Numbered from the stretch's first letter, positions 32,557 through 64,000 are shown. The stretch: DNA of 64,000 nucleotides from an uncultured virus (IMG/VR IMGVR_UViG_3300020182_000015) (IMGVR_UViG_3300020182_000015), one strand, 5' to 3'. Translations and numbers: made by a program. Notes: generated by a model from the letters alone, not told the origin.

Positions 32557-32763
32557 ATGTATTTGAAAATAGAAGGCGAACCAAAATTAGTAAAAGATAT
32601 TAAAACTGGCGCGATCCTAAATTTAAATTATCATGATGAAATAGCTAAAATTAAAAAAGCTAAAGCATTAAAAAAAATGCAAGAGAATGAAATAACCGAT
32701 TTAAGAGCAGAAGTAAGCGAAATTAAAGAATTACTTGCTATGCTAATAAGAAAGATTGACTAA
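32557..32763 (+). CDS. Small coiled-coil protein of the T4-like tail region
   Basis: KIEGEPKLVKDIKTGAILN...LRAEVSEIKELL. Confidence 0.75.
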   Translation: MYLKIEGEPKLVKDIKTGAILNLNYHDEIAKIKKAKALKKMQENEITDLRAEVSEIKELLAMLIRKID

Positions 32764-33008
32764 TGGCTAGAAAATATTACGTAGATTTAAGTGATACCAT
32801 TGCTGCATGGCGTGGTAAAACTAATTTAATTTCTGAAAATATTGGTGATTTAGATAATCTTACCTGGAGTGATGATAGCGATGTTGTTGCGGCACTGAAT
32901 AGTCTCTATGCATTGAGTGGTCCTAGAACCGAAAGGTTATTAATTTTAGATGCAAGTGGGACAGTTGTTAAATCCATATATGGTTATGCTGATTCTGGAG
33001 TTAGCTGA
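32763..33008 (+). CDS. Small structural protein with fibre-type N-terminus
   Basis: VDLSDTIAAWRGKTNLISENIGDLDNL; TAATG coupling with the upstream gene. Confidence 0.65.
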   Translation: MARKYYVDLSDTIAAWRGKTNLISENIGDLDNLTWSDDSDVVAALNSLYALSGPRTERLLILDASGTVVKSIYGYADSGVS

Positions 33009-33010: not shown

Positions 33011-34000
33011 GTGGCTATACATAGACCATTAACTTATGATAATACTGGTGGCGTGCTGCGCCAGATGACTGATGCAGAGTTAACAGCTTTACGTCTAAAA
33101 GCTATCTATACATATGGTTTAAATCCATCAGTTGTTCTTTCTCGTGTAGGTACAGGTGGTAATTTAGGTTCAATATACGATACAAGATCAATAGTAAATG
33201 GGTATGCTGCAGATTCTGATGGTGCACCACCGGTTACAATAAAAACCATAGAATTTTCTAATATTAATCAAACAGTACAAAGTGAATTAGCAGTTAATAA
33301 CGCGTCACTTAAAGAATATCCAGTCTATTTAAATAATAGTGGTGATATTGCTGCAATGACAGATATTGATTTTTATGATACAATTATTTTACCAGCAATT
33401 GATATTTTAACAAGTGGAAATACAACTTCTCAACAGCCCGGCACATATTTTATTTCAGCTACTAATAATGTTGCTGGTGCAACTTTAGTTGACCCTCTAC
33501 CTATTTACATAGATACTCGAGCTGACCTTAATTATTTCCGAAATGACGATTATGATTACGATTATGATTACGATTATGAATACGATTATGAATATTGCGG
33601 GCCATATGAAAACGATAGACCAATTCAAATTCAACAATTTTATTTGCACCGAATAGATGCAAATGCTGGAATTTTAGCACCAATTTCTTATCCGCTTTAT
33701 ATTACTGATAATAATAATTTAAAAATTTATGGAGCTAACGAATTAAATACACTATTAGAAAAAAGTATTAGATATACTGCTTCTGCAAATTCAGCCGGAT
33801 TAATTAGATATTCATATACAGATGGCAATACAAGAGGTAGTGCTATGTCAAATACAGTGTATTCGGGTTCTGGGTTTAAAGATTGGGCAATTGCTGATCT
33901 CTGTATTCCCGGAGATTACGATTATGATATTGTTCAGCAAGTTCCGGCTGGACCTGTCACAACAGCGAACATATATAATTTAAGGATCAAAAAAGGATAG
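33011..34000 (+). CDS. Putative structural protein with an (Asp/Glu-Tyr)n tract
   Basis: 329 aa, GTG start with GGAG RBS; DDYDYDYDYDYEYDYEY at 33545-33595. Confidence 0.7.
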   Translation: MAIHRPLTYDNTGGVLRQMTDAELTALRLKAIYTYGLNPSVVLSRVGTGGNLGSIYDTRSIVNGYAADSDGAPPVTIKTIEFSNINQTVQSELAVNNASLKEYPVYLNNSGDIAAMTDIDFYDTIILPAIDILTSGNTTSQQPGTYFISATNNVAGATLVDPLPIYIDTRADLNYFRNDDYDYDYDYDYEYDYEYCGPYENDRPIQIQQFYLHRIDANAGILAPISYPLYITDNNNLKIYGANELNTLLEKSIRYTASANSAGLIRYSYTDGNTRGSAMSNTVYSGSGFKDWAIADLCIPGDYDYDIVQQVPAGPVTTANIYNLRIKKG

Positions 34001-34557: not shown

Positions 34558-35322
34558 ATGAGTAAAAATAAAATTGTTTACTTGCAATGGGGTGATAGAT
34601 ATACTCAAGAGCATGTAGATCGATTATATGATCAAATCAATAAAAATTGTTCAGTAGATTTTGACTTTATGACGGTACAAGGCTGTCATGAAGGCGCTGC
34701 CTTTGATCAAATGCAATCTTTACAAAAAAAATATTATAGAGGTGATTTGGACGTAGACTCATCTATAACCGAAAATTCATCCGATACATATGTTCGTGAA
34801 GATGCCGGTGGTCTTGCACACTTTCGTAAATTTATTTTATTCATGCGAGACGACGATGATAGATATTTTGATAAAGATGACACTATATTATATGTTGATT
34901 TAGATACACTTATTACAAACGATCTATCATATTTTTTCGATTTAGATAATTCTAAACCTTGGATTGCACGCAGCTGGCAGTTTAATAAAGATAGTAAATG
35001 GAAAAGATTATATAATTTAAGAAGTTGTCCATATTTCAATAGTTCTGTTATGGTATGGAAACCCGGGCAATGTAGAAAAATATTTAATCAGCTTACAAAT
35101 CCAGTCAAAATAGAAGCATCATTTTTTCAATACGGAGTAAATGATAATTGGTTATTTCATAGATTTGGTCCAATGGCATATAGTAAAGATGATAGAAATT
35201 TTTTTAATCATTTTGATAAAGACATTGTAGTGTCAGACCCAAGTTATATGACAAATAATACTAAAATCCATACATTAGCAGGCCTTTCTATGAATGAAAA
35301 GAATAAAATATGTTTGAATTAA
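34558..35322 (+). CDS. GT-A fold glycosyltransferase (xWG..Y type)
   Basis: LQWGDRY, ILYVDLDTLI, FNSSVMVW, NDNWL. Confidence 0.82.
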   Translation: MSKNKIVYLQWGDRYTQEHVDRLYDQINKNCSVDFDFMTVQGCHEGAAFDQMQSLQKKYYRGDLDVDSSITENSSDTYVREDAGGLAHFRKFILFMRDDDDRYFDKDDTILYVDLDTLITNDLSYFFDLDNSKPWIARSWQFNKDSKWKRLYNLRSCPYFNSSVMVWKPGQCRKIFNQLTNPVKIEASFFQYGVNDNWLFHRFGPMAYSKDDRNFFNHFDKDIVVSDPSYMTNNTKIHTLAGLSMNEKNKICLN

Positions 35323-35924
35323 ATGATAGCTTAATATCATGTTTAGCATATATTGATTCTAACATGCCTTATAGAAAAAAAGATTTTTATGATTCAATTA
35401 AGCCCCAAGCATTACAAGCAAAGTTTTGGTTAGCTGAAGAATATAATAAAATTTATAAAGAACAGCGCACCGCAAATATTATTGGTGCAGGCTTTGTAAT
35501 GTTTAATGATTATTTTTTAAAGATAATGAATATAGATAATATTGTATATTATGATTTAGATAAAGAAGCATTATCGTTGAATTGGCATGCATTAAAAAAA
35601 ATACGCGAAGAAAAATTAATTTCACAAAAATGTTTAGATGTATTTTTAGATTATGAATATGTACGCAATGATTTATATAATGGAGTTGTTATAAATTATT
35701 CCTGTGAATCTATGTTTTATATGAAAAATTATATAGATATTACAAATTATCCAGCTAATACCGTATACTGTTTTATGGGATCTTCTTCCTTTAAAAGAGG
35801 AAATATTAATGTATCGAATAGCCTGGAAGATTTCATAGAAAAAAGCGGGTTAATTAATATTAATTATTCTGGGGAAAAATCTTTTGGAGATGAAACAAAA
35901 TATTTGGTAATTGGTACTACATAA
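35310..35924 (+). CDS. Class I SAM-dependent methyltransferase-like protein
   Basis: KFWL, IIGAGF, YDLD, VINYSCE, C-terminal YLVIG; paralog of 38935-39552. Confidence 0.65.
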   Translation: MFELNDSLISCLAYIDSNMPYRKKDFYDSIKPQALQAKFWLAEEYNKIYKEQRTANIIGAGFVMFNDYFLKIMNIDNIVYYDLDKEALSLNWHALKKIREEKLISQKCLDVFLDYEYVRNDLYNGVVINYSCESMFYMKNYIDITNYPANTVYCFMGSSSFKRGNINVSNSLEDFIEKSGLININYSGEKSFGDETKYLVIGTT

Positions 35925-35955
35925 TGTATCTCCCCTTTCATAAAAGCTACTCTTT

Positions 35956-35984
35956 ATTATACACTCGTTTTGACAATTTGTCAA
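35956..35984 (-). promoter_or_regulatory. Perfect-consensus sigma70 promoter on the minus strand
   Basis: TTGACA (35984-35979)-17 bp-TATAAT (35961-35956), followed by GGGGAG and ATG-TAG. Confidence 0.8.
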
Positions 35985-36017
35985 CCCCCTAAATATAAAA
36001 AAATTAACATTTTAGCA

Positions 36018-36046
36018 TTTACTATTGTACTTTCTTATGATATAAT
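36018..36046 (+). promoter_or_regulatory. Sigma70-type promoter for the QueC-like gene and downstream transferases
   Basis: TTTACT-17 bp-TATAAT with extended TG. Confidence 0.72.
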
Positions 36047-36070
36047 AAGTTATATAATGAAAGAAGAATT

Positions 36071-36751
36071 ATGAAATTTTTAACTGGCCCTACATGGGAT
36101 GAAAGAGTAATTGATTTAAATCCTGCTTCTAAGATAGGAATTTTAGTTTCATCTGGTGTGGATAGTACTACCCTTTTAAAACTTATTTGGGATAACTTTA
36201 AAGATATTAATATAAGACTTTTTAATGTTCAAACAAGTGAAAACCCAGCAAAACCCACAATACAAAAAATTTTAGATCAACTTGAAATTCCACTAGAACT
36301 TGAAATTGTTGGCAAGTCTAGATGGAATTGGCCTATGCATGCCCATTATCCTAGATTATGTAAAGCATTTCAAGAAATACGAGATACTACTGATTGCGAA
36401 GAACTTTATTGCGGAAATATTCTTCCACCTCATCCACAATGGTTTCCTAGATGGGATGTGAAACAAAAAGGAATAGCTAAAAGACCTTGGGTGACCAACG
36501 ATAAATTTTTAAAAAATCCATTTGAACATTTAGAAAAATATCATGTACTGGATATAGGAGTAAGAAACAATTTTGAACAAATTTATCAACAAACAATTTC
36601 GTGTAATATTCATGCAGAAATTCCGTGTAATGATTGTATGGGGTGCTGTGAATTAAAATGGGGGTGGGAACAACTTTCATCAAAGGTTGGTACTAATCTT
36701 GATGAAATGACAAAAGACGCAATGATAAAATATGGGAATATAGGATGGTAA
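36071..36751 (+). CDS. QueC-like PP-loop ATP pyrophosphatase
   Basis: ILVSSGVDST PP-loop; NPFEHLEK; TISC......PCNDCMGC.E..W zinc-binding C-terminus. Confidence 0.78.
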   Translation: MKFLTGPTWDERVIDLNPASKIGILVSSGVDSTTLLKLIWDNFKDINIRLFNVQTSENPAKPTIQKILDQLEIPLELEIVGKSRWNWPMHAHYPRLCKAFQEIRDTTDCEELYCGNILPPHPQWFPRWDVKQKGIAKRPWVTNDKFLKNPFEHLEKYHVLDIGVRNNFEQIYQQTISCNIHAEIPCNDCMGCCELKWGWEQLSSKVGTNLDEMTKDAMIKYGNIGW

Positions 36752-37308
36752 ATATAACTAATATAGACAAAGCATATGATGATGCTGCAGTTTGGTACGA
36801 AGAAAAATATGTTAATGGCGGTTGGGAAAATAATATTTACATGAAAGACGAAAAAGACGCATGGCAGTATTGGTCAATGTTAAATTTGTCTGGAAAAATA
36901 GTATCTTTGGGATGTGGATCTGGTCAAGACATTCCTATCCTTGATATGCCAAATCCAAATAATTTTGAGGGGTATGATATATCCCAAGGTATGCTAGATA
37001 ATGCAAAAATAAAATTTCCAGATTATAGCTTTACTCATCATGATTGTAATAAGATGATCGATACTAATGCTGATATTTTGGTAAGTATATTTGGAACAGC
37101 TAATTATTTAGGTATTGATACACTTTTGCAACATTACAACCATATGAATTGTAAGCATGCTTTTTTTGTTTTTTATGATGAAAATTATGTTGATGGTATT
37201 ATTGACACTTATTATAGGTATACTAAAGAACAATTAGAAAAAGCATTTGAGCAGTTTAATCCAGATGTTCGTAAATTAAATAATAATTACTATATTGTAG
37301 CCTGGTAA
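36745..37308 (+). CDS. Class I SAM-dependent methyltransferase
   Basis: VSLGCGSG motif I, GYDISQGMLDNAKIKFP. Confidence 0.88.
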   Translation: MVNITNIDKAYDDAAVWYEEKYVNGGWENNIYMKDEKDAWQYWSMLNLSGKIVSLGCGSGQDIPILDMPNPNNFEGYDISQGMLDNAKIKFPDYSFTHHDCNKMIDTNADILVSIFGTANYLGIDTLLQHYNHMNCKHAFFVFYDENYVDGIIDTYYRYTKEQLEKAFEQFNPDVRKLNNNYYIVAW

Positions 37309-38015
37309 TGTTGCGAATTATTGTTTCTAAATGGGGGGATATGTATGGAGAGGAATACATAGACAAACTTAAAGAAAGTATTGCAAAATACACTACTGTT
37401 GATTGGGACTTAACAGTTATTAGAGATTGCCATACCGATTGGGAGCATTATAGCAAGAAATGGTTTCGAGGAGAGGGTAATCCATCTGTTGTACAAGGTG
37501 AAGGTTTTCAAAATGGTTATCACCATTATAATTTAGGAGGTATTCCTCTTTATAGAAAAATGTATCCCTTTGGTTTAGATGATTTCGCAGATGATAATGA
37601 TACTATCATTATGATGGATATAGATATGTTAATCACCGCGGATTTAAAATATTTTACAACTTTAAATTTTGATAAACCTTGGGTACAATATGATTATAAT
37701 ATGGAAAAAACAGATAAAAATAGATTAATAAAAGATTTTATTAATCAGAATATTACTCCGATCAATACATCTGTTACTGTCTGGAAAAAAGGTCAATTAA
37801 AACCAGTATATGATTTAGTTAATCAGTATAAAGATGAAATATTTTTTACTTATCGCAGAGTTGATGCTTATGTATGGTATAGATTCGGAGTAAAAGAATT
37901 TTTTAATTTTTTGCCCCCTTTAGCTGTTGATTGGTATTCTAATAATAGTAATGCCATTATAAAAAATATGGCAGGTGAACCTATTAAATTAAAGAATAAA
38001 ATTATTTTAACATGA
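37308..38015 (+). CDS. GT-A fold glycosyltransferase (KWG..Y type)
   Basis: SKWGDMYGEEYIDKL, MMDIDMLI, INTSVTVW. Confidence 0.82.
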   Translation: MLRIIVSKWGDMYGEEYIDKLKESIAKYTTVDWDLTVIRDCHTDWEHYSKKWFRGEGNPSVVQGEGFQNGYHHYNLGGIPLYRKMYPFGLDDFADDNDTIIMMDIDMLITADLKYFTTLNFDKPWVQYDYNMEKTDKNRLIKDFINQNITPINTSVTVWKKGQLKPVYDLVNQYKDEIFFTYRRVDAYVWYRFGVKEFFNFLPPLAVDWYSNNSNAIIKNMAGEPIKLKNKIILT

Positions 38016-38206
38016 TTAAAGTATGGACGCTTGCAATTATAACATATAGTATGGTCTGGGCTGGTGGGGCAATGACTTTAATAAAAATATGTCATTATCA
38101 GAATCCCGATGCTAGTTGGGATTATGTTCAGTTATCATTAAACCGATGGCAAGTTTGTCCACCATTTATTGAAAAGAAATCTAAGTATGCAAAACCAAAA
38201 AAATAG
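38012..38206 (+). CDS. Small putative membrane/secreted protein
   Basis: Hydrophobic N-half, two Cys; ATGA overlap with upstream stop. Confidence 0.5.
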   Translation: MIKVWTLAIITYSMVWAGGAMTLIKICHYQNPDASWDYVQLSLNRWQVCPPFIEKKSKYAKPKK

Positions 38207-38942
38207 AATTATATGCACTAAATGGGGTAGTGGATATGGAGATAAAGATATTGTAAATCTGTATAATTCTGTACAAAAAAATTGTTCTGTTGACATTGAA
38301 TTTGAGTGCTTTGAAAATTTAGAATCCGATTGGGAAGATTATAAATGGAAACATTATAGAGCATCGAATGAACCAGACTATCGAAAAGATATGGTTCAAA
38401 ATAATTATCATAGAGATGATTTTGGCGGAATTCCTCACTATAGGAAAATTCTTCTTTTTGAATTAGATAAAAAATTTAATCCTAATGACAAAATTTTGTA
38501 TTTAGATTTAGATACACTTATCACTGGCGATTTGGCGTATTTTTTTGAAGATTTAAATATTGATAAGCCATATATAGTTTGGAATTATTGGTGGGACCAT
38601 CCTTATTTTGAAAGCGGCTCAGAATGGAAAAGACAATATTCTATTACCCGTTGCCCATTATTTAATAGTTCAACTATGCTATGGAAACCCGGCCAAAATA
38701 AACCAATATATAATCATATAGCGCAATACACTGACGAAGTATTTTTTACTTATCCATCAATGGATACTTTTATGTTTCATAACTTTGGTCCTTGTAACAG
38801 CAGCAAAAATAAAAACCACTTTCAATATTTTGATGAAGGTATTATAACGTCCGAAAGAATTAATTCTATTGAAGACGGAGAAGCCGGAATTATTCATATG
38901 TTGGAAGGATTATCTAATGAAGAAAAGTCTAAGTATGTATAA
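38187..38942 (+). CDS. GT-A fold glycosyltransferase (KWG..Y type)
   Basis: CTKWGSGY, ILYLDLDTLI, FNSSTMLW, MDTFM; start reassigned to ATG 38187. Confidence 0.82.
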   Translation: MQNQKNRIICTKWGSGYGDKDIVNLYNSVQKNCSVDIEFECFENLESDWEDYKWKHYRASNEPDYRKDMVQNNYHRDDFGGIPHYRKILLFELDKKFNPNDKILYLDLDTLITGDLAYFFEDLNIDKPYIVWNYWWDHPYFESGSEWKRQYSITRCPLFNSSTMLWKPGQNKPIYNHIAQYTDEVFFTYPSMDTFMFHNFGPCNSSKNKNHFQYFDEGIITSERINSIEDGEAGIIHMLEGLSNEEKSKYV

Positions 38943-39552
38943 TATTGAACCCACTGATGCTATAAGATACAGTAAATTATTTAACCGTATTAAATGGGAA
39001 TTCCCTTGGTTTTTTGATCAAGTAAAGGATCAAATAAGTGATACTGAATTTCAAATTCAAAAATGGTGGGCTAATCGAATAGATCTCATTGATAAAAAAG
39101 TTAATATTCTTTCCTCGGGCATTGGATTTTATTCAGTACCGTTTTGCTATGAAAAATGCGCTAAACATATTAATGCCTATGATATGGATCCTACCACCGA
39201 TATTCTTTCCAGAGATATTAATAGATTTTATTTTCCAATTTTTGAACATCACCAGAATAATATTATTTTTGATAGAGAATTATTAGATGTATCTGCGGAT
39301 ATTTGGATTAATACCAGTTGTGAACATAGTTATTATATGAAAGATATTATTCCGACTGGTAAGCTATGTGTTTTATCTGGTAATGATTGTTCAAAACGTG
39401 GTCATATCAATTTAATTAATTCAGTTGACCAATTAATTAACCAGACCGGATTATCTTCTATACTTTTTACTGATACAATGCAATTTAATTTTGAAGATGA
39501 TATGGGTAAGCAAGAGTATAATCAGTATTTTGCAATAGGAATTAAGGAATGA
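38935..39552 (+). CDS. Class I SAM-dependent methyltransferase-like protein
   Basis: QKWW, ILSSGIG, YDMD, INTSCEH, HIN, YFAIG; start reassigned to ATG 38935. Confidence 0.68.
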   Translation: MYNIEPTDAIRYSKLFNRIKWEFPWFFDQVKDQISDTEFQIQKWWANRIDLIDKKVNILSSGIGFYSVPFCYEKCAKHINAYDMDPTTDILSRDINRFYFPIFEHHQNNIIFDRELLDVSADIWINTSCEHSYYMKDIIPTGKLCVLSGNDCSKRGHINLINSVDQLINQTGLSSILFTDTMQFNFEDDMGKQEYNQYFAIGIKE

Positions 39553-40439
39553 AAAAAGTTATTTATTCAATTCATGTTGATATTCCAGAACAATTATTAG
39601 ATGAAACCGGATATTCTGTTCATTCTGGAAAAAATAAACACAGAGTTAATCGTGCCGGAGAGACTAAAGACAAATTAAATGCTTATAATAATCGTTTAAT
39701 TTGGACTATGAAGGCATATGCCGATCATATTGATGCTGATTATATTATATACACTTACAATAAAGAATGGATTGACTATTATCTTTATTGTAAAAAAGTT
39801 TATCATAATTTGCCAATGTACCATATTGTGAATTATTATAAACATCATTTAATGCGTAAACTTGCAGATCAATATGATGCTGTTTTTTATGCTGATTTAG
39901 ATGTTATTCCATGGACTAAAGAAAGTGTTTTTGACGCTCACGATTTAAATAAAATTTATGCTAAAAACAATAATGAATTGGCCGAGTGGGGTAAACATGC
40001 CGATTTAACAAAATATAATAGTTGTGATCGAAATCCGGTTATCAAATATTGGAATTGTTATGCTTTATTATTATCTCAAGGCTTTGACCCGGAAAATAAT
40101 GCTATTAATACCGGTACAATGTTAGGTGGTAGTGAAGCTATTAAAAAGCTTGATTGGGATGGGCAATTTGAATACGCGGTAGACTGTATGAAAGCATTAC
40201 AAGATGATACCGCTACAATGTTCCCTAAGGCTTTACATGATAGATTTGCATTTGATAATGAAACTATATTTAGTTACTTAGTAGAAACTCAGCCTATTGA
40301 TTATGCTTCTTTTACTGACGCTTGGCATGGAAGACTTGATGATGATGCAATAAATCCAGAATATAAAATGATTCATGCTATTAATAAACGATTTGATTTA
40401 ATTTGGCCAGATATAAAATATGAAGGTAGAAACCTGTGA
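39549..40439 (+). CDS. GT-A fold glycosyltransferase
   Basis: YADHIDADY, YKHHL, VFYADLD, INTG, DNETIFS, IHAINKRF; paralog of 5941-6792. Confidence 0.82.
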   Translation: MKKVIYSIHVDIPEQLLDETGYSVHSGKNKHRVNRAGETKDKLNAYNNRLIWTMKAYADHIDADYIIYTYNKEWIDYYLYCKKVYHNLPMYHIVNYYKHHLMRKLADQYDAVFYADLDVIPWTKESVFDAHDLNKIYAKNNNELAEWGKHADLTKYNSCDRNPVIKYWNCYALLLSQGFDPENNAINTGTMLGGSEAIKKLDWDGQFEYAVDCMKALQDDTATMFPKALHDRFAFDNETIFSYLVETQPIDYASFTDAWHGRLDDDAINPEYKMIHAINKRFDLIWPDIKYEGRNL

Positions 40440-41092
40440 AAATTTTCCTTTTTAGAATAGGAAATAAATATGGCCCGGAATATGAAACATATTTGAACAA
40501 AAAACTAAAACACTATGATGTAGAGTGGATACATCAACCATTATCATCTGCTGTTGCACTGCAATGGAATAAGATGTTTTTAATGGCATATAATTCTAAT
40601 GATCCAATAGTTGTTATGGATATAGATACTATTCTTTTAAATGATTATACTCAACTATTTGATTACCCTATTCAACCTGGCGAATTTTTAGGAATTCCGG
40701 CATGGTGGTCAAAGAAAACTAATTATCAATTAAATGGTGGATTTTATAAATATTATCCTAAAGAATGTAAATTTATTTTTGATAAGTTTATTGCAGATCC
40801 TAAAAAATGGCAAAGACATTATATTGAAAATGGTACAACTATTGGCCCGGTAAATGGTGAACAGTTTTTTGTTGAGGATACATTAAAAGAACGTTTAAAT
40901 CTTAAACTTATACCAAAATCATGGGTTACTCGGTGGACTCAAAACTCAACTAAAAATGAATATATTAGCCAAAAGTATCCGGGCACTTTAATAAAAGACG
41001 GTAATTTTAATGAAGATATTAAATTAATTCATTTTACAACATCATTAAATAAGCCCCATGACTCAGAGATGTTCAAACATTTATATATTTAG
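40436..41092 (+). CDS. GT-A fold glycosyltransferase
   Basis: IGNKYGPEY, WNKMFL, VMDID, NGGFY, GEQFFV, LIHF. Confidence 0.82.
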   Translation: MKIFLFRIGNKYGPEYETYLNKKLKHYDVEWIHQPLSSAVALQWNKMFLMAYNSNDPIVVMDIDTILLNDYTQLFDYPIQPGEFLGIPAWWSKKTNYQLNGGFYKYYPKECKFIFDKFIADPKKWQRHYIENGTTIGPVNGEQFFVEDTLKERLNLKLIPKSWVTRWTQNSTKNEYISQKYPGTLIKDGNFNEDIKLIHFTTSLNKPHDSEMFKHLYI

Positions 41093-41136: not shown

Positions 41137-41802
41137 ATGGCACGGTTTTCAAATTTATCCCAATTAAGTTTAGTCGACTTATCACCTACCGATGAGATTT
41201 TAATTAATGATATTAGCGTAGAAGGAAATGATTCTTCTGCGTTTAAAAAGCTTTCCGCAATAGATTTTGCTACTTATGCCGTTACATTAATAGCCACGGA
41301 AGCTGACCCAGTTATACAAACAGATTCTGCCAATCTTAATTTTAATATTGGTGACAATTCCCCAACTTTAAAAGACAGTAATGGTCAAGTTACTTTTTTT
41401 ATACCAACCGACTCAAGTGGAATAATAAATAATATTATTGTGCAAGGTCAAGTTACTGATTTAGCAAATCATACTACAACAGATCTTGCTGAAGGTAATA
41501 ATTTATATTATACTACTGCACGATCAGATAGTGCTTTTGATGTAAGGTTTACTACAAAATCTACTACTAATCTTGTTGAAGGTAATAATTTATATTATAC
41601 TGATAATCGGGTACAAGAATATATTGGATCAGGAATTCATTTTCAGACTTATGAAAGTAAACCTATTCCGGATGTTGGTACTTGGTTGTATATGGATTCT
41701 ATTGGAGATGGCGCCACATCATTATATTTTTCCCATGCTAATGGCCAAAAAGATGAATTAATTAGTAAAAATCGTGCCATACTATACAGTCTAATTTTTT
41801 AA
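41137..41802 (+). CDS. Fibre-related structural protein
   Basis: Two TT(D/N)L(A/V)EGNNLYYT repeats; C-terminal ELISKNRAILYSLIF. Confidence 0.7.
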   Translation: MARFSNLSQLSLVDLSPTDEILINDISVEGNDSSAFKKLSAIDFATYAVTLIATEADPVIQTDSANLNFNIGDNSPTLKDSNGQVTFFIPTDSSGIINNIIVQGQVTDLANHTTTDLAEGNNLYYTTARSDSAFDVRFTTKSTTNLVEGNNLYYTDNRVQEYIGSGIHFQTYESKPIPDVGTWLYMDSIGDGATSLYFSHANGQKDELISKNRAILYSLIF

Positions 41803-55603: not shown

Positions 55604-55912
55604 ATGGCTGTCAATCAAAATTTCAAGGTAAAAAAAGGCCTTGAGGTTCAAGACTCTGCAATAATAGGTGGGGGATTAACTGTAAATGGAATTTCATATC
55701 CTAATATTGACGGTCTTTTTAATGATGTCATCAAAACTGATGGTAGTGGCAATCTTGTTTTTGGTAAGTTGAGCATCAATGACTTATCTGATGTAAATCT
55801 TCTAAGCTTAAAAGACGGCGGCCTGCTAATTTACGATTCTGATCAAAGTAAATGGGTTGCTAATACAGAACTTAACAACAATTCTCAACGTATTAACGGA
55901 GGCCAATACTAA
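55604..55912 (+). CDS. Short fibre-like structural protein
   Basis: FKVKKGL, KTDGSGNL.F, LSDV....DG.LL.YD....W; AAGGAG RBS. Confidence 0.72.
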   Translation: MAVNQNFKVKKGLEVQDSAIIGGGLTVNGISYPNIDGLFNDVIKTDGSGNLVFGKLSINDLSDVNLLSLKDGGLLIYDSDQSKWVANTELNNNSQRINGGQY

Positions 55913-58116
55913 TGGCAGCAATATTAATTAAACGTTCCACGGGTGTTGCGGCGCCATCTAGTTTGAAAACTGGTGAACTCGCATACTCATACGGGACAGG
56001 AACCCAGGCCAATCTGGGTGATAGACTATTCTTTGGCAAGGGCGACGATGGGGCTGGCAATGCTACCTCCGTTGTAGTTATTGGCGGTGAATATTTTGCA
56101 TCGATGCTCGACCATGTTCCCGGAACATTAACAGCATCCTCAGCTATTCTTGTCGATGCTAATTCTAAAATCGATAAATTACTTGTTGACAATATCACTA
56201 TCGGTGATACTGATGCGCAAACAATTAGCACATCTTCCGGAGATTTGGTATTATCCGCTACCGGTAATGTACAACTTGGCTCTACTTTAGATGCTAATAA
56301 TAATGCAATTACTAATGTACCAACACCATCAGCGGCTTCGCATGCTGCAAACAAGCAGTATGTTGATGACCAAATTGGTGGGGCTGTTGGCCTTACTATT
56401 AATGGTGATACTGGTACCGATACCATTAACCTTGCAGATTCGGATTTCACCGTTACTGGTGGAACTGGTCTTACAACTGTAGCATCAAATAATCAAGTAA
56501 CTATTAGTCTTGATAATACTGCAGTTACTCCTGGTAGTTATGGTAGTGCAACAGATATTCCAACATTTACTGTTGATGCACAAGGCCGGATCACTGCAGC
56601 AGGTACTGTAGATTTAGCTAGTATTACTGTTGATTCAGCAGAAGTTCAAGCGATTGTGGATGCAACCTTTACTGCAAACTCAAGCGATGATCTTTCTGAA
56701 GGTACAACAAATCTTTATTATACCTCTGCTCGTGCAGATTCTGATGCAAAAAATGCTCTTGTTGGTGGTACTGGTATTACATACAACTCCAATACCGGAG
56801 CGATCTCTGCAGACCTTAATGCAATTGACCATGATTCACTACTAAATTTTGTAGCCAATGAACACATTGATCACTCTTCAGTTTCAATTACTGGCGGCAA
56901 TGGTTTAACTGGTGGCGGCGATATTACCACCTCTAGAACACTTAATGTTGGGGCTGGTACTGGTATTACAGTAAATGCGGATAACGTTGCTGTTGATATG
57001 AGTGCATTTACTACAACCAATCTTGCTGAAGGTAATAATCTTTATTATACCCCAGCTCGTGCGGATTCCGATGCAAGAAATGCAATAACTGTAACTGATA
57101 ACGCCGACTTTGGCGGATTAACTTATAATCCTGCTGATGGTACGTTTACATACACCAGTATTACTCCAGCAGAGCTTGCGGCAAGTGCTGTTTCAGCTGG
57201 TACAGGTGTTACCGTTGTCGCTGGTGAAGTAAGCATTGGTCAAGCAGTTGAAACAACTTCTAATGTAACTTTTGCTGACATTACTGCTACTGGTGATCTT
57301 GTTGTAGGTGGAAGCCTTCAAGTTGATGGTACATTAACATATATTGATACACAGACACTTTCTGTTTCTGACAACATGATCTATCTCAATGGTGGAGAAT
57401 CTGACGGTTCACCAACAGCATCTATTGATTTAGGTTGGGCTGGCAACTATAATGAGGGTGGTTCATACGCCCACACTGGTTTCTTCCGTGACGCAACAGA
57501 CCAAACGTTCAAAATTTATCAAGGTTATACCCCAGAACCAGATGCTGCAACTCAAATTGATACATCACACGCATCATTTGCACTTGCTGATTTCCAAGCA
57601 GCAACAATTACTGCAGAATCTTTTGTCGGTAATTATGCTGGCTTTGATTCCGACTTTAATGGCAAATCTACAAGTGATTTAAGCGAAGGTTCTAACCTTT
57701 ACTATACAGATACTCGTGTAGATGACTTGCTCCAAACTATGTTGGTTGCCGGTGAAGGTGTTACAATCACTAATGGCGTTGGCACTTATACAATTGCTGG
57801 TGAAGATGCATCTGATACAAATAAAGGTATTGCAAGCTTTGATGCTACACACTTTACTGTAACTTCTGGTGCGGTAGCATTAAATGACATTACACTTACT
57901 GCTGGAGATGCCTCCACACTCGGCGTTGCGGCTGGTGAAGGTTTAACCATTAATGGTGACGGAATTATCACTACGGCAATTTCCGGAAGTGTAATGACGG
58001 TATCTGTTCAAGATGCAACAACTACTGCAAAAGGTGTTGCAAGCTTTGATTCTACTCAGTTTACTGTAACTTCTGGTGCGGTAGCATTAAATACTGTTGA
58101 TGGTGGAACATATTAA
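55912..58116 (+). CDS. Tail fibre-like protein
   Basis: IKRSTGVAAPSSLKTGELAYS N-terminus, GSYGSAT.IP.FTVDAQGRITAA, LSEG.NLYYT repeats, C-terminal DGGTY. Confidence 0.8.
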   Translation: MAAILIKRSTGVAAPSSLKTGELAYSYGTGTQANLGDRLFFGKGDDGAGNATSVVVIGGEYFASMLDHVPGTLTASSAILVDANSKIDKLLVDNITIGDTDAQTISTSSGDLVLSATGNVQLGSTLDANNNAITNVPTPSAASHAANKQYVDDQIGGAVGLTINGDTGTDTINLADSDFTVTGGTGLTTVASNNQVTISLDNTAVTPGSYGSATDIPTFTVDAQGRITAAGTVDLASITVDSAEVQAIVDATFTANSSDDLSEGTTNLYYTSARADSDAKNALVGGTGITYNSNTGAISADLNAIDHDSLLNFVANEHIDHSSVSITGGNGLTGGGDITTSRTLNVGAGTGITVNADNVAVDMSAFTTTNLAEGNNLYYTPARADSDARNAITVTDNADFGGLTYNPADGTFTYTSITPAELAASAVSAGTGVTVVAGEVSIGQAVETTSNVTFADITATGDLVVGGSLQVDGTLTYIDTQTLSVSDNMIYLNGGESDGSPTASIDLGWAGNYNEGGSYAHTGFFRDATDQTFKIYQGYTPEPDAATQIDTSHASFALADFQAATITAESFVGNYAGFDSDFNGKSTSDLSEGSNLYYTDTRVDDLLQTMLVAGEGVTITNGVGTYTIAGEDASDTNKGIASFDATHFTVTSGAVALNDITLTAGDASTLGVAAGEGLTINGDGIITTAISGSVMTVSVQDATTTAKGVASFDSTQFTVTSGAVALNTVDGGTY

Positions 58117-58241: not shown

Positions 58242-61200
58242 ATGTCTACTAAAGTTAAGCTGAAAAAATCCAGCATAGTTGGTCGTGTTCCAAGTGTAAA
58301 TGATCTTGATTATGGTGAAATTGCCATTAACTATGCTGATGGTAGAATTTACTATAAAAGTAGTTCAAACAGCATTAACTATTTCCAAGATTTTAATAAT
58401 GCATTAGCCGGATTTGATTCGGCAGATGTTTTTGGCATCATTGATTCCGCATATATTCAAAATCGTCAAAATCTTGAATATTCTAGCCTAATAGGCATTC
58501 CTACCTCTTTTACACCAAATGGTGTAGATTCTAGCGCCACTTTTGCGCTCATTGATAGCGATTATATTGCAACGCGGGCTAACCTAGCCTTTGCTGGTAC
58601 TGCTGATATAACAAACTACCAATTTGTAGCCGATTCTGGTGATATTACCTTTACTGGTACAGATGTTAATGGTTTAACATTATCATTTAATAATCAATTA
58701 GTTCAAGTTTACTTGAACGGTATATTGCTTCTTGAAAATGATGATTATACAAAATCCAATAATAATACTATTATTTTATCAAGGCCTGTTGATTCCGGTG
58801 ATCAATTAATTGTCTCGGATTTTAATGCGTTCTTTACAAATCAAACTGTTACCGCTAATACTATACACGGCTTTATTGACTCGGCTTTAGCTTCTGTTGG
58901 AGAAGCTGATATTACCGCATTCGAATTTACAGCAGATTCCGGCCAAACTGCCTTTAGTGGTATTGATAATAATGGCGCAACTCTTAGTTTAGATCCAACT
59001 GGTGTTCAAGTATATCTTAATGGTATTTTACTTTCTGGGGCCTCTGACTATACAGTTTCTGCAAATACATTAACGCTAACCGATGGGGCAAGCCTCAATT
59101 CACATTTAAGCGTACAGTCTTTTAAAAGATATTTTAATTTTGTTGGACTTGACTCCGCAGATATAACTGGCATTGTTGATGCTACGTATATCCAAGCCAA
59201 TCAAACCGCACAAGACTTTGCTTATGCATCGTTAACCGGCGTGCCAACAACATTTGCTCCTATTGGTGTCGATTCCGCTTCTACTATAGCGTTGATTGAT
59301 TCTGCATATATTGCAGCTCGTACACCGGAAGTTGTAGCAACTGATTTATCTGACTATAGAACAGAAACTCAAATCAAAACCTTAATTGATTCTGGTGTTA
59401 ATGCGGTAATTGATGCTGCACCTGGTGCATTAGATACACTTAATGAATTAGCAGCAGCCCTTGGGGATGATGCCAATTTTAGCACAACAATTACTAATCA
59501 AATAGCTACAAAAATTGATTCGGCTGGAGTGGTCGGTATTGTTGATGCGGCATATGTTCAAAGTAGACAAACTCCACAAGATTTTGCTTACTCTAGCTTA
59601 ACCGGCACACCAAATGTTCTTGATTCCGCCGATATTACTAATGTAGTTGACGCTACATATATTCAAGCAAATCAAACAGCACAAGACTTTGCTTATGCAT
59701 CATTAACTGGGACACCAAATGTTCTTGATTCCGCCGATATTACTAATGTAATCGATGTTGCATATATTCAGGCCAATCAAACACCACAAGATTTTGCATA
59801 TAGTTCCTTAAGTGGTGCCCCAAATGTACTTGACTCTGCCGATATAGCCGCAATTGCTACTGCAGCTGGTGGGGTTGATTCTGCTGCAATTGAAGCAATG
59901 ATCGACAGCAACTATGTTGCTAGTAGAGTTTCATTAGCGTATGCTGGTAATGCTGAAGTAAAAAATTATAAGTTTGTTGCGGATTCAGCACAAACAGTAT
60001 TTACTGGTGTTGATGAAAATGCTGTTACATTAGGATTTACAAATCAATTAGTACAAGTTTATTTAAACGGCGTTCTTTTACTTGATTCTGATGATTATAC
60101 AAAGTCTAATAACAATACAATTACATTAGTTACTCCGGCAAATTTGGGTGATCAACTAATAGTTTCTGATTTTAAATCATTTTTTGCTAGCGCTGGTCTT
60201 GATTCCGCTGATATTACCAATGTAATTGATGCCACATATATTCAGGCCAATCAAACACCACAAGACTTTGCTTATTCTAGTTTAACAGGTGCCCCTAATG
60301 TACTTGATTCCGCTAATGTATCAACTCTTATTACTACTGCGGTAGATGCTCTTGTAGACGGCGCGCCAGGAGCATTGGATACTCTTAATGAATTAGCTAC
60401 CGCCTTAAATGATGATTCAAATGCAATTGCAGCAATTAATAATACCCTTGCTCTTAAATTAAATATTGCGGATGTAGTTCCTCAAGATTTTGCTTATTCT
60501 AGCTTAACCGGTGTACCAACAACATTTGCGCCAACTGGGGTAGATTCTGGTTCAACATTATCATTAATTAATGCTGCTTATATTCAAGCCAATCAAACAC
60601 CACAAGACTTTACATATAGTTCTTTAACCGGAGCTCCAAATGTTCTCGACTCTGCCGATGTAACCGCAATTGCTACTGCAGCAGGAGGAGTTGATTCGGC
60701 CGCAATTGAAGCAATGATTGATAGCAATTATGTTGCTTCAAGGGTTACATTAGCCTATGCCGGTAATGCTGAAGTAAAAAATTATAAGTTTGTTGCAGAC
60801 TCTGCCCAAACAATATTTACTGGCGCCGATGAAAATGCTGTTACATTAGGATTTACAAATCAGCTAGTACAAGTGTATTTAAATGGTGTTTTACTTTTAG
60901 ATAGCGACGATTATGCAAAATCTAATAATGATACTATAACATTAGTTACTCCGGCAAATTTGGGTGATCAATTAATTATCTCAGATTTTAAATCATTTTT
61001 TGCTAGCGCTGGTCTTGATTCAGCAGATATTACCAATGTAATTGATGCCACATATATTCAAGCAAATCAGACAGCACAAGACTTTGCTTACTCCAGTTTA
61101 ACTGGTGCACCAAATATTTTGGACTCTGCCGATGTACTAGCTATAGCTCCAGCACAAGACTTTGCTTATTCTAGCTTGACTGGTACGCCTAATGTACTTG

Positions 61201-64000
61201 ATTCGGCTGATGTACTAGCATTAGCTCCAGCGCAAGACTTTGCTTACTCCAGCCTAACTGGTACGCCTAATGTACTTGATTCGGCTGATGTACTAGCATT
61301 AGCTCCAGCGCAAGACTTTGCTTACTCCAGCCTAACTGGTACGCCAACCACTATTGCTGGTTATGGCATAACAGATGCTTTTGATGGTGCATATAGCTCA
61401 TTAACAGGAACGCCAAATGTTCTTGACTCTTCCGATGTAACCGCAATTGCTACTGCGGCAGGTGGGGTTGATTCCGCTGCAATCGAAGCAATGATTGACA
61501 GCAACTATGTTGCTAGCAGAGTTACATTGGCCTATGCCGGTAATGCTGAAGTAAAAAATTATAAGTTTATAGCAGATTCCAATCAAACCATATTTACTGG
61601 TGCTGATGAAAATGCGGTTACATTAGGATTTACAAATCAATTAGTACAAGTATATCTTAATGGTGTTTTACTTTTAGATGGCGACGATTATACAAAGTCT
61701 AATAACAATACAATTACATTAACGCAGGGTGCTAGCGTTGGCGATCAACTAATAGTTTCTGATTTTAAATCATTTTTTGCTAGCGCTGGTCTTGATTCCG
61801 CCGATATTACTAATGTAATTGATGCTACATATATTCAAGCAAATCAGACAGCGCAAGACTTTGCATATAGTTCCTTAACCGGTGCACCTAATGTACTTGA
61901 CTCTAATAATGTTTCAGCACTTATCACAACTTCAATTGATAATCTTATTGACGGTGCACCCGGGGCATTAGATACTCTTAATGAATTAGCGACTGCTTTA
62001 AATGATGATTCAAATGCAATTGCAGCAATTAATAATACATTAGCTCTTAAGTTAAATATTGCTGATGTAACACCTCAAGATTTCTCATATGCTAGCTTAA
62101 CCGGAGTTCCAACAACATTTGCTCCCACTGGTGTAGATTCTGGTTCAACATTATCATTAATTAATGCGGCGTATATACAGGCAAATCAAACACCACAAGA
62201 CTTTGCCTATTCTAGCTTAACCGGAGTTCCAACAACATTTGCTCCCACTGGTGTAGATTCTGGTTCAACATTATCATTAATTAATGCGGCGTATATACAA
62301 GCTAACCAAACACCACAAGACTTTGCATATGTATCCTTAACGGGTGCTCCAAATGTTCTTGATTCTGCTGACGTATTAACTATTGCTAATGCGGCCGGAG
62401 GAGTTGATTCCGCCGCAATCGAAGCAATGATCGATAGCAATTATGTTGCAAGTAGAGTTACATTGGCCTATGCTGGTAATGCGCAGGTTCAAAATACTAA
62501 ATTTATAGCAGATTCCAATCAAACCATATTTACTGGATTATCATATGCCGATCAATTAGTACAAGTTTATTTAAACGGCGTTCTTTTACTTGATTCTGAT
62601 GATTATACAAAGTCTGGCAATGATACGATTACATTGACACAGCCAGCTGATTTGGATGATCAATTAATTGTCTCGGATTTTAATGCGTTCTTTACAAATC
62701 AAACTGTTGACTCTGCGCAAATTAACTCACTAATTGATTCGGCTTTAGGCACCGTTGGGCGCGCCACCGTAAAAAATTATAAGTTTATAGCTGACTCCGG
62801 TGATATAACATTTACTGGCACAGATGCTAATGGCTTATCATTATCATATAATAGCCAACTTGTTCAAGTATATTTAAATGGCTTATTGCTTACCGAATCC
62901 ACTGATTATACAAAGTCTGGCAATGATACGATTACATTAATTAGCGCCGCTGATTCTGGTGATGAATTATCAATTGTAGACTTTAATTCATTTTTTACAT
63001 ATTCCGGCTTTGATTCCGCCGATGTATTGGCTTTACAAACACCACAAGACTTTGCTTACTCTAGCTTAACAGGCACGCCAAATATTCTCGACTCCGCTGA
63101 TGTACTTGCACTAGCTCCGGCACAAGACTTTGCTTACTCTAGCTTGACCGGTGCCCCTAATGTGCTCGACTCCGCTGATGTACTTGCACTAGCTCCGGCA
63201 CAAGATTTCGCTTATTCTAGCTTGACTGGTGCACCTAATGTGCTCGATTCTGCAGATGTATTGGCTTTACAAACACCACAAGACTTTGCTTACGCATCAT
63301 TAACTGGTACCCCTAATATACTTGATTCTGCAAATGTATTGGCAATTGTTCCGGCTCAAGACTTTGCGTACGCTAGCTTGACTGGTGCACCTAATGTACT
63401 TGATTCCGCAAATGTATCAACTTTAATTACTACTGCAGTAGACGCTCTTGTAGATGGTGCACCTGGAGCACTCAATACGCTCAACGAATTAGCAATTGCT
63501 TTAAATGATGATTCAAATGCAATTGCAGCAATTAATAATACGTTAGCTCTTAAGTTAAATATTGCAGATGTCACTCCTCAAGATTTCGCTTATTCTAGCT
63601 TGACTGGTGCACCTAATGTACTTGATTCCGGGGATGTACTAGCATTAGCTCCAGCACAAGATTTCGCTTATTCTAGCTTGACTGGTGCACCTAATGTACT
63701 TGATTCCGGGGATGTATTGGCCATTGCTACGGCAATTGGAGGAGTAGATTCTGCTGCAATTGAAGCAATGATCGACAGCAACTATGTTGCTAGTAGAGTT
63801 TCATTAGCGTATGCTGGCAATGCACAGGTTCAAAATACTAAATTTATAGCAGACTCCGCTCAAACAGTATTTACTGGTTTGTCATATGCTGACCAATTCG
63901 TGCAAGTATATTTAAATGGTGTTTTACTTTTAGATAGCGACGATTATACAAAGTCTGGTAATGATACAATCACTTTAATAACCGGAGCAGCCTCTGGCGA
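58242..64000 (+). CDS. Giant modular fibre protein, over 1900 aa, runs past the window end (not in ORF track)
   Basis: ATG 58242 after TAAGGA: MSTKVKLKKSSIVGRVPSVNDLDYGEIAINYADGRIYYK...; same frame reads NDTITLITGAASG at the window end; eight VQVYLNG modules and many QDFAYSSLTG.PNVLDS repeats. Confidence 0.88.
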   Translation, partial: MSTKVKLKKSSIVGRVPSVNDLDYGEIAINYADGRIYYKSSSNSINYFQDFNNALAGFDSADVFGIIDSAYIQNRQNLEYSSLIGIPTSFTPNGVDSSATFALIDSDYIATRANLAFAGTADITNYQFVADSGDITFTGTDVNGLTLSFNNQLVQVYLNGILLLENDDYTKSNNNTIILSRPVDSGDQLIVSDFNAFFTNQTVTANTIHGFIDSALASVGEADITAFEFTADSGQTAFSGIDNNGATLSLDPTGVQVYLNGILLSGASDYTVSANTLTLTDGASLNSHLSVQSFKRYFNFVGLDSADITGIVDATYIQANQTAQDFAYASLTGVPTTFAPIGVDSASTIALIDSAYIAARTPEVVATDLSDYRTETQIKTLIDSGVNAVIDAAPGALDTLNELAAALGDDANFSTTITNQIATKIDSAGVVGIVDAAYVQSRQTPQDFAYSSLTGTPNVLDSADITNVVDATYIQANQTAQDFAYASLTGTPNVLDSADITNVIDVAYIQANQTPQDFAYSSLSGAPNVLDSADIAAIATAAGGVDSAAIEAMIDSNYVASRVSLAYAGNAEVKNYKFVADSAQTVFTGVDENAVTLGFTNQLVQVYLNGVLLLDSDDYTKSNNNTITLVTPANLGDQLIVSDFKSFFASAGLDSADITNVIDATYIQANQTPQDFAYSSLTGAPNVLDSANVSTLITTAVDALVDGAPGALDTLNELATALNDDSNAIAAINNTLALKLNIADVVPQDFAYSSLTGVPTTFAPTGVDSGSTLSLINAAYIQANQTPQDFTYSSLTGAPNVLDSADVTAIATAAGGVDSAAIEAMIDSNYVASRVTLAYAGNAEVKNYKFVADSAQTIFTGADENAVTLGFTNQLVQVYLNGVLLLDSDDYAKSNNDTITLVTPANLGDQLIISDFKSFFASAGLDSADITNVIDATYIQANQTAQDFAYSSLTGAPNILDSADVLAIAPAQDFAYSSLTGTPNVLDSADVLALAPAQDFAYSSLTGTPNVLDSADVLALAPAQDFAYSSLTGTPTTIAGYGITDAFDGAYSSLTGTPNVLDSSDVTAIATAAGGVDSAAIEAMIDSNYVASRVTLAYAGNAEVKNYKFIADSNQTIFTGADENAVTLGFTNQLVQVYLNGVLLLDGDDYTKSNNNTITLTQGASVGDQLIVSDFKSFFASAGLDSADITNVIDATYIQANQTAQDFAYSSLTGAPNVLDSNNVSALITTSIDNLIDGAPGALDTLNELATALNDDSNAIAAINNTLALKLNIADVTPQDFSYASLTGVPTTFAPTGVDSGSTLSLINAAYIQANQTPQDFAYSSLTGVPTTFAPTGVDSGSTLSLINAAYIQANQTPQDFAYVSLTGAPNVLDSADVLTIANAAGGVDSAAIEAMIDSNYVASRVTLAYAGNAQVQNTKFIADSNQTIFTGLSYADQLVQVYLNGVLLLDSDDYTKSGNDTITLTQPADLDDQLIVSDFNAFFTNQTVDSAQINSLIDSALGTVGRATVKNYKFIADSGDITFTGTDANGLSLSYNSQLVQVYLNGLLLTESTDYTKSGNDTITLISAADSGDELSIVDFNSFFTYSGFDSADVLALQTPQDFAYSSLTGTPNILDSADVLALAPAQDFAYSSLTGAPNVLDSADVLALAPAQDFAYSSLTGAPNVLDSADVLALQTPQDFAYASLTGTPNILDSANVLAIVPAQDFAYASLTGAPNVLDSANVSTLITTAVDALVDGAPGALNTLNELAIALNDDSNAIAAINNTLALKLNIADVTPQDFAYSSLTGAPNVLDSGDVLALAPAQDFAYSSLTGAPNVLDSGDVLAIATAIGGVDSAAIEAMIDSNYVASRVSLAYAGNAQVQNTKFIADSAQTVFTGLSYADQFVQVYLNGVLLLDSDDYTKSGNDTITLITGAASG

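Follow-up and report, generated by a model that had tools for sequence, protein, structure and literature searches.

The tail fibre proteins encoded in a 64,000-nucleotide stretch of DNA from the uncultured virus IMGVR_UViG_3300020182_000015 (the window, i.e. the whole stretch analysed here) contain the dipeptide Asp-Ser (DS) far more often than expected, and this excess is real and specific to the fibres. Before the fibre genes stands a cassette of predicted glycosyltransferases and other enzymes (34558-41092), and a first-pass annotation of the same DNA took DS for the acceptor sequon of these transferases, which would give a heavily glycosylated tail. Our analysis partly supports that interpretation. 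From the sequence context of the motif and a structural model we lean, without great assurance, towards another explanation as the most likely one, namely that DS marks structurally where each unit of a large fibre-repeat family begins and has been multiplied as these units were duplicated. The cassette may decorate the fibres, and the DS serines are only candidate acceptors.

Results

DS is over-represented in the tail fibres

Four fibre proteins carry the excess (O/E, ratio of observed to expected DS; aa, amino acids):

41137-41802, + strand, small fibre protein, 221 aa, with structural and tail-fibre PHROG matches; 6 DS against 2.0 expected (O/E 3.0)
42127-47178, + strand, tail fibre, 1683 aa, with a C-terminal intramolecular chaperone domain; 34 DS against 15.6 expected (O/E 2.2)
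49811-54610, + strand, fibre protein, 1599 aa (phrog_8578, phrog_23820); 28 DS against 13.1 expected (O/E 2.1)
58242-63998, + strand, giant repeat fibre of at least 1919 aa, which runs off the window; 64 DS against 17.8 expected (O/E 3.6)

Pooled, these proteins hold 132 DS against 48.7 expected, and no other dipeptide that occurs 20 times or more in them is as strongly over-represented as DS. Of 2000 residue shuffles per protein, none reached the observed number in any of the three large fibres, and 18 did so for the 41137 protein. The reversed dipeptide SD is found at expectation (50 against 48.7), and both DT (22 against 50.0, a ratio of 0.44) and ES (7 against 13.2) are depleted. A hydrophobic residue precedes DS at 100 of the 132 sites, A, D, G, N or S follows it at 121, and all six serine codons are in use, just as the first-pass annotation had described. 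Its counts were accurate as well: the 49811-54610 protein has 26 DS before residue 800 and 2 after it (about 25 in the first ~800 aa and about 2 in the C-terminal half had been given), the 41137 protein has 6, and gp32 (8518-9441) has none. As to the identity of the fibres, the 42127 protein matches Peptidase_S74 (E 5e-14), tail-fibre PHROGs and the distal subunit of a long tail fibre (PDB 6f45), and the 58242 protein matches 20 PHROG families, 9 of which are tail or tail-fibre families.

The excess is, however, narrower than had been claimed. The presence of DS in non-repetitive baseplate proteins had been offered as an argument against repeat expansion. The quoted sites exist, but the enrichment does not: the VrlC-type baseplate protein (27459-32555) has 9 DS against 9.0 expected and gp8 (26055-27443) has 3 against 2.8, numbers reached by 1095 and 1114 of 2000 shuffles, respectively, and the argument fails because both proteins are at expectation. 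Within the fibre region the proteins at 55912-58116 (7 DS against 6.0) and 47182-49371 (4 against 3.1) are not enriched either, and the 32 proteins upstream of 32.7 kb are depleted of DS (30 against 44.5).

Repeat modules and the context of DS

The 58242 protein, in which DS had correctly been reported from most repeat units, is built of about seven module types, each with its own DS. Examples are QDFAYSSLTGxPNVLDSADVxAL, GVDSAAIEAMIDSNYVASR and GLDSADITNVIDATYIQANQ, as well as a beta-sandwich module (FVADSAQTVFTG...LLLDSDDYT). The short, heavily duplicated DS module YYTxARxDSAFDxRF is also among the fibre building blocks. When 19 homologous blocks, drawn from the window and from eight further viral loci and 32-83% identical to the first row, were aligned, D107-S108 was the sole nearly invariant pair. 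Only fragments of the fibre architecture are shared by cultured phages, in 229 records mostly as the APGALDTLNELAAALGDD coiled-coil motif, and a few marine podoviruses share the beta-sandwich of the 58242 fibre. A search of 50,697 phage records turned up no cultured phage whose fibres are rich in DS. PDB entry 9d93 ('tail collar fibers gp4') shares a fibre motif with the window, but the DS-containing part of the alignment was not significant (i-Evalue 170).

The DS sites fall into 62 non-redundant contexts. Position -1 is hydrophobic in 68% of them, against a background of 31%, and position +2 is small. Position +4 is hydrophobic at 58% of all sites and at 45% of the non-redundant ones (background 31%), position +7 at 53% of the non-redundant ones, and Asp is the commonest residue at position +3 of the full set (32 of 132). 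A helix start with a capping box and a hydrophobic staple has a hydrophobic residue at N', Asp, Ser or Thr at the N-cap, an acidic residue at N3 and a hydrophobic one at N4. The fibre DS contexts match this pattern, including the hydrophobic residues that flank the N-cap. Unlike the usual helix N-cap, the fibre motif recurs at very high density, at the start of nearly every repeat.

Residues 440-760 of the 58242 protein were modelled with AlphaFold as a monomer from the 19-row alignment. Both DS in the confidently predicted beta-sandwich (predicted local distance difference test score, pLDDT, 82-96) are placed in inter-strand loops, and 7 of the 8 DS outside it stand at the start of a predicted helix that begins at the Ser, in regions where pLDDT is below 50. 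In the explanation that we favour, the DS excess would belong to one class of fibre building blocks, the short and much-duplicated modules, in which hydrophobic-Asp-Ser-small-x-hydrophobic would mark a helix start or a tight turn, with Asp as the helix N-cap and the flanking hydrophobic residues as the staple. To judge from the sequence context and the low-confidence model, selection would retain the motif as a start signal that all repeats require alike, and duplication of the repeats would then multiply it.

The genomic setting and the enzyme cassette

The window comes from an uncultured marine T4-like myovirus of the pelagimyophage/cyanomyophage group and covers the part of its genome that runs from the baseplate to the fibre genes. 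PHROG and Pfam scans identified a T4-like structural block with gp32, baseplate hub and wedge proteins (gp5, gp6, gp8, gp25, gp53-type), a VrlC-type protein and then the fibres, at a GC content of about 0.33. Nucleotide searches gave no DNA-level match to cultured phages. The best relatives of its gp6 are those of Phage C48C1 (40% identity) and Synechococcus phage S-H9-1 (33.6%), followed by Pelagibacter phage HTVC008M (32.4%) and the Methylophilales Melnitz phages (31.2%); the hosts of the nearest cultured relatives are SAR11, cyanobacteria and Methylophilales, not Bacteroidetes.

The part from 32.7 to 64 kb is a host recognition cluster, i.e. tail fibres with an inserted enzyme island, and the cassette is a genuine part of this already known kind of island. 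According to the available portions of Zaragoza-Solas et al. 2020 (PMC7029224), the pelagimyophage cluster is a large non-syntenic island extending from VrlC to gp14, with tail fibres, glycosyltransferases (GT8 being the most represented) and swappable cassettes of radical S-adenosylmethionine (SAM) enzymes. Its authors favour modification of the host O-chain as the role of the transferases, and those portions mention neither a DS motif nor the composition of fibre repeats, with which the present analysis is concerned. The window and its relatives agree with this description in having an island after VrlC, fibres and GT8 transferases, and radical SAM cassettes occur in the relatives. Here the cluster starts in the structural region after the VrlC-type protein, island and fibres come next, and the gene maps of 68 related loci show fibres and glycosyltransferases that are not syntenic. 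The window stops inside the 58242 fibre gene, with the gp14 border beyond it; in one relative (G002) other virion genes follow the fibres. Homologs of 27459-32555 are annotated as VrlC in HTVC008M, P-HM1 and Mosig, and a scan with the VrlC C-terminus alone matched only the window's own contigs. The genes from this border to the end of the cassette are as follows, except for a small gene described below:

27459-32555, + strand, VrlC-type baseplate protein, 1698 aa (phrog_358 at 1284 bits); left border of the host recognition cluster
33011-34000, + strand, conserved protein with a DYDYDYDYDYEYDYEY run, no Pfam, PHROG or NCBIfam match; its homologs ('h') precede the enzyme island in many relatives
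34558-35322, + strand, predicted GT8-type glycosyltransferase, family A2, with a DLD motif (PF01501, 25.2 bits against a cut-off of 24.3)
35310-35924, + strand, tentative methyltransferase-like protein, family A3; no Pfam match, weak signals
36071-36751, + strand, predicted PP-loop ATPase, QueC-like (PF06508 at 26.7 bits; phrog_1550; weak TIGR00364, TilS and AsnB N-terminal matches)
36745-37308, + strand, predicted class I SAM-dependent methyltransferase (Methyltransf_25/12/11; weak NCBIfam methyltransferase matches)
37308-38015, + strand, predicted GT8-type glycosyltransferase, paralog of 34558 (blastp 32.5% identity, E 7.5e-34)
38169-38942, + strand, predicted GT8-type glycosyltransferase, paralog of 34558 (blastp 39.3% identity, E 2.6e-52; PF01501 at 17.4 bits, below the cut-off)
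38869-39552, + strand, second methyltransferase-like protein of family A3, paralog of 35310 (blastp E 3.9e-10)
39549-40439, + strand, predicted GT8-like glycosyltransferase, family A4, with a DLD motif (6 of 17 family members match PF01501, best E 9.9e-8)
40436-41092, + strand, predicted GT8-related glycosyltransferase, family A5 (phrog_1962; hhalign of A5 against A2, probability 99.2%, E 5.9e-20)

Judged by sequence comparison, the cassette is predicted to encode five soluble glycosyltransferases of GT8 type, one clear methyltransferase and two proteins resembling one, together with a PP-loop ATPase (36071), which the first-pass annotation lacked. The five glycosyltransferases of that annotation are right, because 34558, 37308 and 38169 are paralogs and 34558 passes the GT8 cut-off and has GT8 folds among its Foldseek matches, because A5 aligns with A2 in hhalign, and because A4 members match PF01501. 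As to its three methyltransferase-like proteins, 36745 is solid, and 35310 and 38869 give weak signals only: 2 of 17 A3 members weakly match Spermine_synth, hhalign of A3 (35310) against the 36745 methyltransferase gives a probability of 2%, and ESM Atlas places 35310 near Methyltransf_31 (21% of members) at 0.95 and near PCMT and nicotianamine synthase (NAS) at 0.87. The 38169 protein has 65 metagenomic homologs at E <= 1e-5.

For the model of 34558 (pLDDT 73, predicted TM-score, pTM, 0.76), Foldseek found 55 PDB matches at E <= 0.001, with XXYLT1, glycogenin, LgtC and GlyE at the top; the best of them have E 2.6e-6 to 1e-4, 13-16% identity and TM-scores of 0.41-0.52. D114 and D116 are invariant in family A2, as are D116 and D118 in A4. 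The predicted GT-A fold with a DxD motif thus likens 34558 to glycogenin, XXYLT1 and GlyE, which acts on a pneumococcal serine-rich repeat adhesin. Since LgtC, a lipooligosaccharide (LOS) enzyme, scores as well as the protein-acting GT8 enzymes, this fold does not reveal the acceptor. No membrane-spanning segment was found in any cassette protein (maximum hydropathy below 1.3), and Pfam, PHROG and NCBIfam scans found no flippase, polymerase or recognised sugar-nucleotide gene in the cassette. The cassette shares its strand with the fibres and lies inside the late structural block, with baseplate genes on one side and fibre genes on the other. A second enzyme pair lies far from it: a radical SAM protein (5105-5932, phrog_21308) and then a GT8-like paralog of 39549 (5941-6792), whose homologs sit inside the fibre-adjacent islands of relatives.

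DS and the cassette in related loci

Related loci were collected with a gene that is independent of DS:

49451-49798, + strand, small protein annotated 'L-shaped tail fiber assembly' (phrog_1084, phrog_3304); the anchor

This anchor (alignment A1) yielded 68 related viral loci, fetched with 10-kb flanks. In 37 of them at least one of four cassette families (GT8-like A2, methyltransferase-like A3, A4 and A5) is found within the flanks, beside the fibres. Whole-contig profile searches detected GT8-like genes farther off in 2 of the other 31 contigs and none of A3, A4 and A5 in the 26 contigs searched for them. All four families are missing from the complete genomes of HTVC008M, P-HM1 and Melnitz, whose fibres show no DS excess (O/E 0.5-2.0). 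In C48C1 a GT8-like gene, an A4-like gene and a carbamoyltransferase lie 30-60 kb from the fibres, which again show no excess (O/E 0.5-2.0); that this island might stand beside other DS-rich proteins was ruled out, its three large neighbours having O/E 0.4-0.9. The fibres of the cultured Pelagibacter phage Mosig are DS-poor (O/E 0.5-1.5) although its large island includes an A5-type transferase, and a 3193-aa fibre of locus L040 has 8 DS against 27.9 expected despite an island that bears glycosyltransferases.

The locus maps show three arrangements: a variable enzyme island between VrlC and the fibres, three small genes upstream of the anchor, or the anchor directly after VrlC. Proteins scored as DS-rich (at least 10 DS and an O/E of at least 2.5) are encoded in the majority of loci with the first arrangement. 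They are also encoded in one clade with the second, in which the four cassette families are absent on contigs of up to 74 kb. Cassette types differ by lineage (GT8-like, methyltransferase-like, radical SAM, carbamoyltransferase, oxygenase), and the islands of relatives hold up to 14 radical SAM genes, carbamoyltransferases, an FkbM methyltransferase, 2-oxoglutarate (2OG) oxygenases and cupins. A 249-aa gene upstream of the anchor in the G029 clade, the DS-rich one of the second arrangement, has Nucleotid_trans/GT8 clusters as its nearest in ESM Atlas (0.97), but it was not confirmed as a GT-A enzyme (hhalign 2.1% against A2 and 0.4% against A4; no PDB profile match). In the lineage with three small genes the anchor is adjoined by a 226-aa protein (L082 9273-9950 and homologs, alignment A8), also found in C48C1, whose YPPGGxIxWHNNANA block is invariant and looks cupin-like by eye; the protein matches nothing in Pfam and nothing meaningful in the PDB.

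Co-occurrence was scored over 71 rows, i.e. 67 loci and 4 cultured phages, with L048 left out. With the cassette defined narrowly, 33 rows have both a cassette and a DS-rich protein, 6 a cassette only, 11 a DS-rich protein only and 11 neither, and 10 are indeterminate. A signature of sequon avoidance was rejected, since the core genes of cassette-bearing relatives have DS O/E of 0.97 (G002), 0.94 (G036) and 1.32 (G012); unlike these, the window's own core genes are DS-poor (0.68). Family A5 was found in 3 contigs among genomes of 185,579 species, all of them phage-like.

Three contigs of metagenome-assembled genomes labelled Flavobacteriales, Verrucomicrobiales and Chloroflexota (L128, L129, L130; one of 161 kb) carry a VrlC homolog and families A2, A3 and A5; they probably belong to phages and ended up in bacterial bins. 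In the G012 contig (L123-L124, 40-80 kb) the VrlC homolog is separated from the fibres by an island of about 27 kb with 14 radical SAM genes, an FkbM methyltransferase, a QueC-like PP-loop ATPase, a carbamoyltransferase and GT8-like genes. The Mosig island (L136, 54.7-73.4 kb) is annotated with two Asp/Arg hydroxylase-domain proteins, an N-acetyltransferase, aminotransferases, MoaA-like radical SAM enzymes, a carbamoyltransferase, methyltransferases, nitroreductase-like proteins and an epimerase, and is a possible bench system for the question of what such islands act on.

The most DS-dense proteins of all are small ones encoded between VrlC and the island in relatives (G002 L029 3651-5466; 's' and 'u300' genes). 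The corresponding gene of the window is short:

32763-33008, + strand, 81-aa member of a small-protein family; the homologs ('s') in relatives have 190-310 aa and are extremely DS-rich (8-19 DS against 1.4-4.2 expected)

A 203-aa copy in G002 has 16 DS where 3.1 are expected, and in a 393-aa protein there are 29 where 6.4 are expected; rung-like repeats of the form hydrophobic-DS-A-x-hydrophobic are present in the two proteins. Two fibre-like proteins of L111 (G029 contig, 28833-31798) have repeats of about 18 residues, ADSAxNATxAxxAxxA, in which DS is accompanied by an N-A-T triplet, the classical N-x-T pattern.

Discussion

Several lines of evidence incline us to see DS as a start signal of fibre repeats. 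The enrichment is limited to repeat-rich fibres and does not extend to baseplate proteins; the 62 non-redundant sites have the context of a capping box with a hydrophobic staple, and the model puts 7 of 8 sites at predicted helix starts and 2 of 2 in loops; the pair is nearly invariant in its motif across homologs of 32-83% identity; DT is depleted and SD is at expectation. Furthermore, glycosyltransferase islands occur without a fibre DS excess in Mosig, C48C1 and L040, and the core genes of cassette-bearing relatives do not avoid DS.

A number of results weigh against this explanation. The predicted helix starts are suggestive at most, because pLDDT outside the beta-sandwich is below 50, and a trimeric fibre may fold differently from the monomer model. 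When repeats were crudely collapsed by masking every 12-mer that had 7 or more of its 12 residues in common with a preceding one, 31 DS remained in the four fibres against 15.2 expected (2.0-fold, Poisson P 2.5e-4) and 39 against 21.1 in seven fibre-region proteins; since divergent repeats escape this collapse, the remaining excess is an upper bound on enrichment independent of repeats. Relatives without the cassette show no DS enrichment and have DA, DG, TA or NG at homologous positions, which is some evidence, from sequence, in favour of the earlier reader. In the LYYTxxRxD- motif, DS is found in 8 of 12 copies in the window and 54 of 104 in cassette-bearing loci, and in 0 of 4 in cassette-less Melnitz, where DA, DG, DD and DT stand instead. 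Six marine podoviruses have TA/TS and NG/DG/DQ/NS at the two beta-sandwich DS positions, with DS at either in 0 of 6, and no GT8 match was found in any of the five whose complete genomes were searched. Ser appears from these alignments to be structurally dispensable, Asp being kept and Ser replaced in cassette-less homologs. The Melnitz and podovirus contrasts, which favour glycosylation, are few and phylogenetically confounded. Finally, when any transferase was counted, 45 rows had both a glycosyltransferase and a DS-rich protein, 11 the former only, 1 the latter only and 8 neither, with 6 indeterminate (Fisher P 1e-4). The predicted co-occurrence is thus seen in raw counts, but only 2-3 contrasts are independent: on the anchor-gene tree the transferase state changes just 2-3 times, which leaves 1-3 independent pairs and a sign-test p of 1, so that the association of DS with transferases is inseparable from shared ancestry.

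That the Ser of DS is an O-glycosylation acceptor, and that the five GT8-type transferases and the methyltransferases build the glycan in the cytoplasm before assembly, we consider quite unlikely. None of the computable outcomes named as contrary to it by the first-pass annotation was observed: the excess survives the collapse of repeats, and related phages without the cassette (HTVC008M, P-HM1, Melnitz) are not equally enriched. The cassette lies directly beside DS-rich fibres, as do related cassettes in 37 of 68 loci; its enzymes are soluble, and neither a flippase or polymerase gene nor a recognised sugar-nucleotide gene accompanies them; among the nearest folds are GT8 enzymes with proteins or protein-linked glycans as substrates (glycogenin, XXYLT1, GlyE); cassette-less homologs keep Asp and replace Ser; and the raw two-by-two table of any transferase is positive. 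Against this stand the sign test on the anchor tree, the 11 rows with a glycosyltransferase but without a DS-rich protein, the DS-poor fibres beside the Mosig island, and secondary-structure boundaries, which in the model account for the positions of DS. The general O-glycosylation sequon of Bacteroidetes is D-(S/T)-(A/I/L/V/M/T) and acts on exported proteins. The fibre motif resembles it in having Asp just before Ser and Ala after DS at 59 of 132 sites. It differs in that DT is depleted to 0.44 of expectation, although Ser and Thr are both used in the sequon, in that 67 of 132 sites have G, D, N, S or another third residue, leaving just 65 that fit, and in that virion proteins fold in the cytoplasm. 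We found no literature on a DS motif or sequon in phage fibres, as far as titles and abstract openings tell. Should DS nevertheless be glycosylated, the fibre would have a glycan about every 30-40 residues, a rather improbable picture in our view. It is similarly doubtful that the fibres carry periodic glycan at the Ser of hydrophobic-Asp-Ser-small, at more than 130 sites in four proteins, and that swappable cassettes diversify it between lineages.

The cassette could also have targets unrelated to DS. It is possible, although on the whole not probable, that it acts on the host envelope, with GT8 enzymes altering the O-chain or core of lipopolysaccharide (LPS) and blocking superinfection. This accords with the view favoured in the available portions of PMC7029224, with LgtC being among the best fold matches of 34558, and with one metagenomic homolog that its source names 'lipopolysaccharide biosynthesis glycosyltransferase'. 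The cassette, however, contains no membrane-associated or lipid-carrier genes and lies within the late structural block on the fibre strand, and the near-restriction of A5 to phage-like contigs weakens the simple notion of a borrowed host LPS gene without deciding the matter. Unlikely, too, is decoration of virion proteins at sites other than DS, for instance C-terminal ones, with DS purely structural. Related cassettes adjoin fibres in many loci, and phage-encoded virion glycosylation has a precedent: mycobacteriophage glycosyltransferases are proposed or shown to decorate their own virion (Freeman et al. 2023, as cited in PMC12619734), with glycans reported at the C-termini of capsid and tail-tube subunits. 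As in those phages, the predicted glycosyltransferase genes of the window adjoin structural genes; unlike them, the window has a periodic fibre motif, another host group and another transferase set. The capsid and tube genes lie outside the window, and the comparison across loci has the same weak power here. Highly improbable, in our opinion, is modification of Asp instead of Ser (PCMT-like methylation by A3 leading to aspartimide or isoaspartate, hydroxylation in sister islands) or binding of cations by DS along the fibre axis. Asp is the better conserved residue of the pair, sister islands have Asp/Arg hydroxylase, cupin/JmjC and 2OG oxygenase genes, and the proximity of 35310 to PCMT and nicotianamine-synthase-like methyltransferase clusters in ESM Atlas is a lead; but Atlas scores under 0.9 often arise by chance, A3 could not be connected by hhalign even with a bona fide methyltransferase, and oxygenases are missing from the cassette of the window itself.

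Few large phages of the sea are as abundant as the myoviruses of SAR11 and other marine bacteria, and the published guess at what the enzyme islands in their host recognition clusters do is modification of host LPS. A countable fibre motif beside such islands would make the question of their target directly testable. If DS is a structural signal, the recurring start of a large, undescribed fibre-repeat family has been identified, and enrichment of a dipeptide beside transferase genes is no evidence of a sequon. If DS is glycosylated, the whole fibre surface, and not only its tip, would be a variable glyco-surface.

Other features of the window

The GC content rises to 0.41-0.46 at 46000-50000, against about 0.33 elsewhere, coinciding with a glycine-rich-domain protein (47182-49371, PF21722). 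Between gp32 and the baseplate hub genes, the - strand encodes a Ser-rich protein of 753 aa (9438-11699; 73 Ser) with a peptidase/endolysin-type domain.

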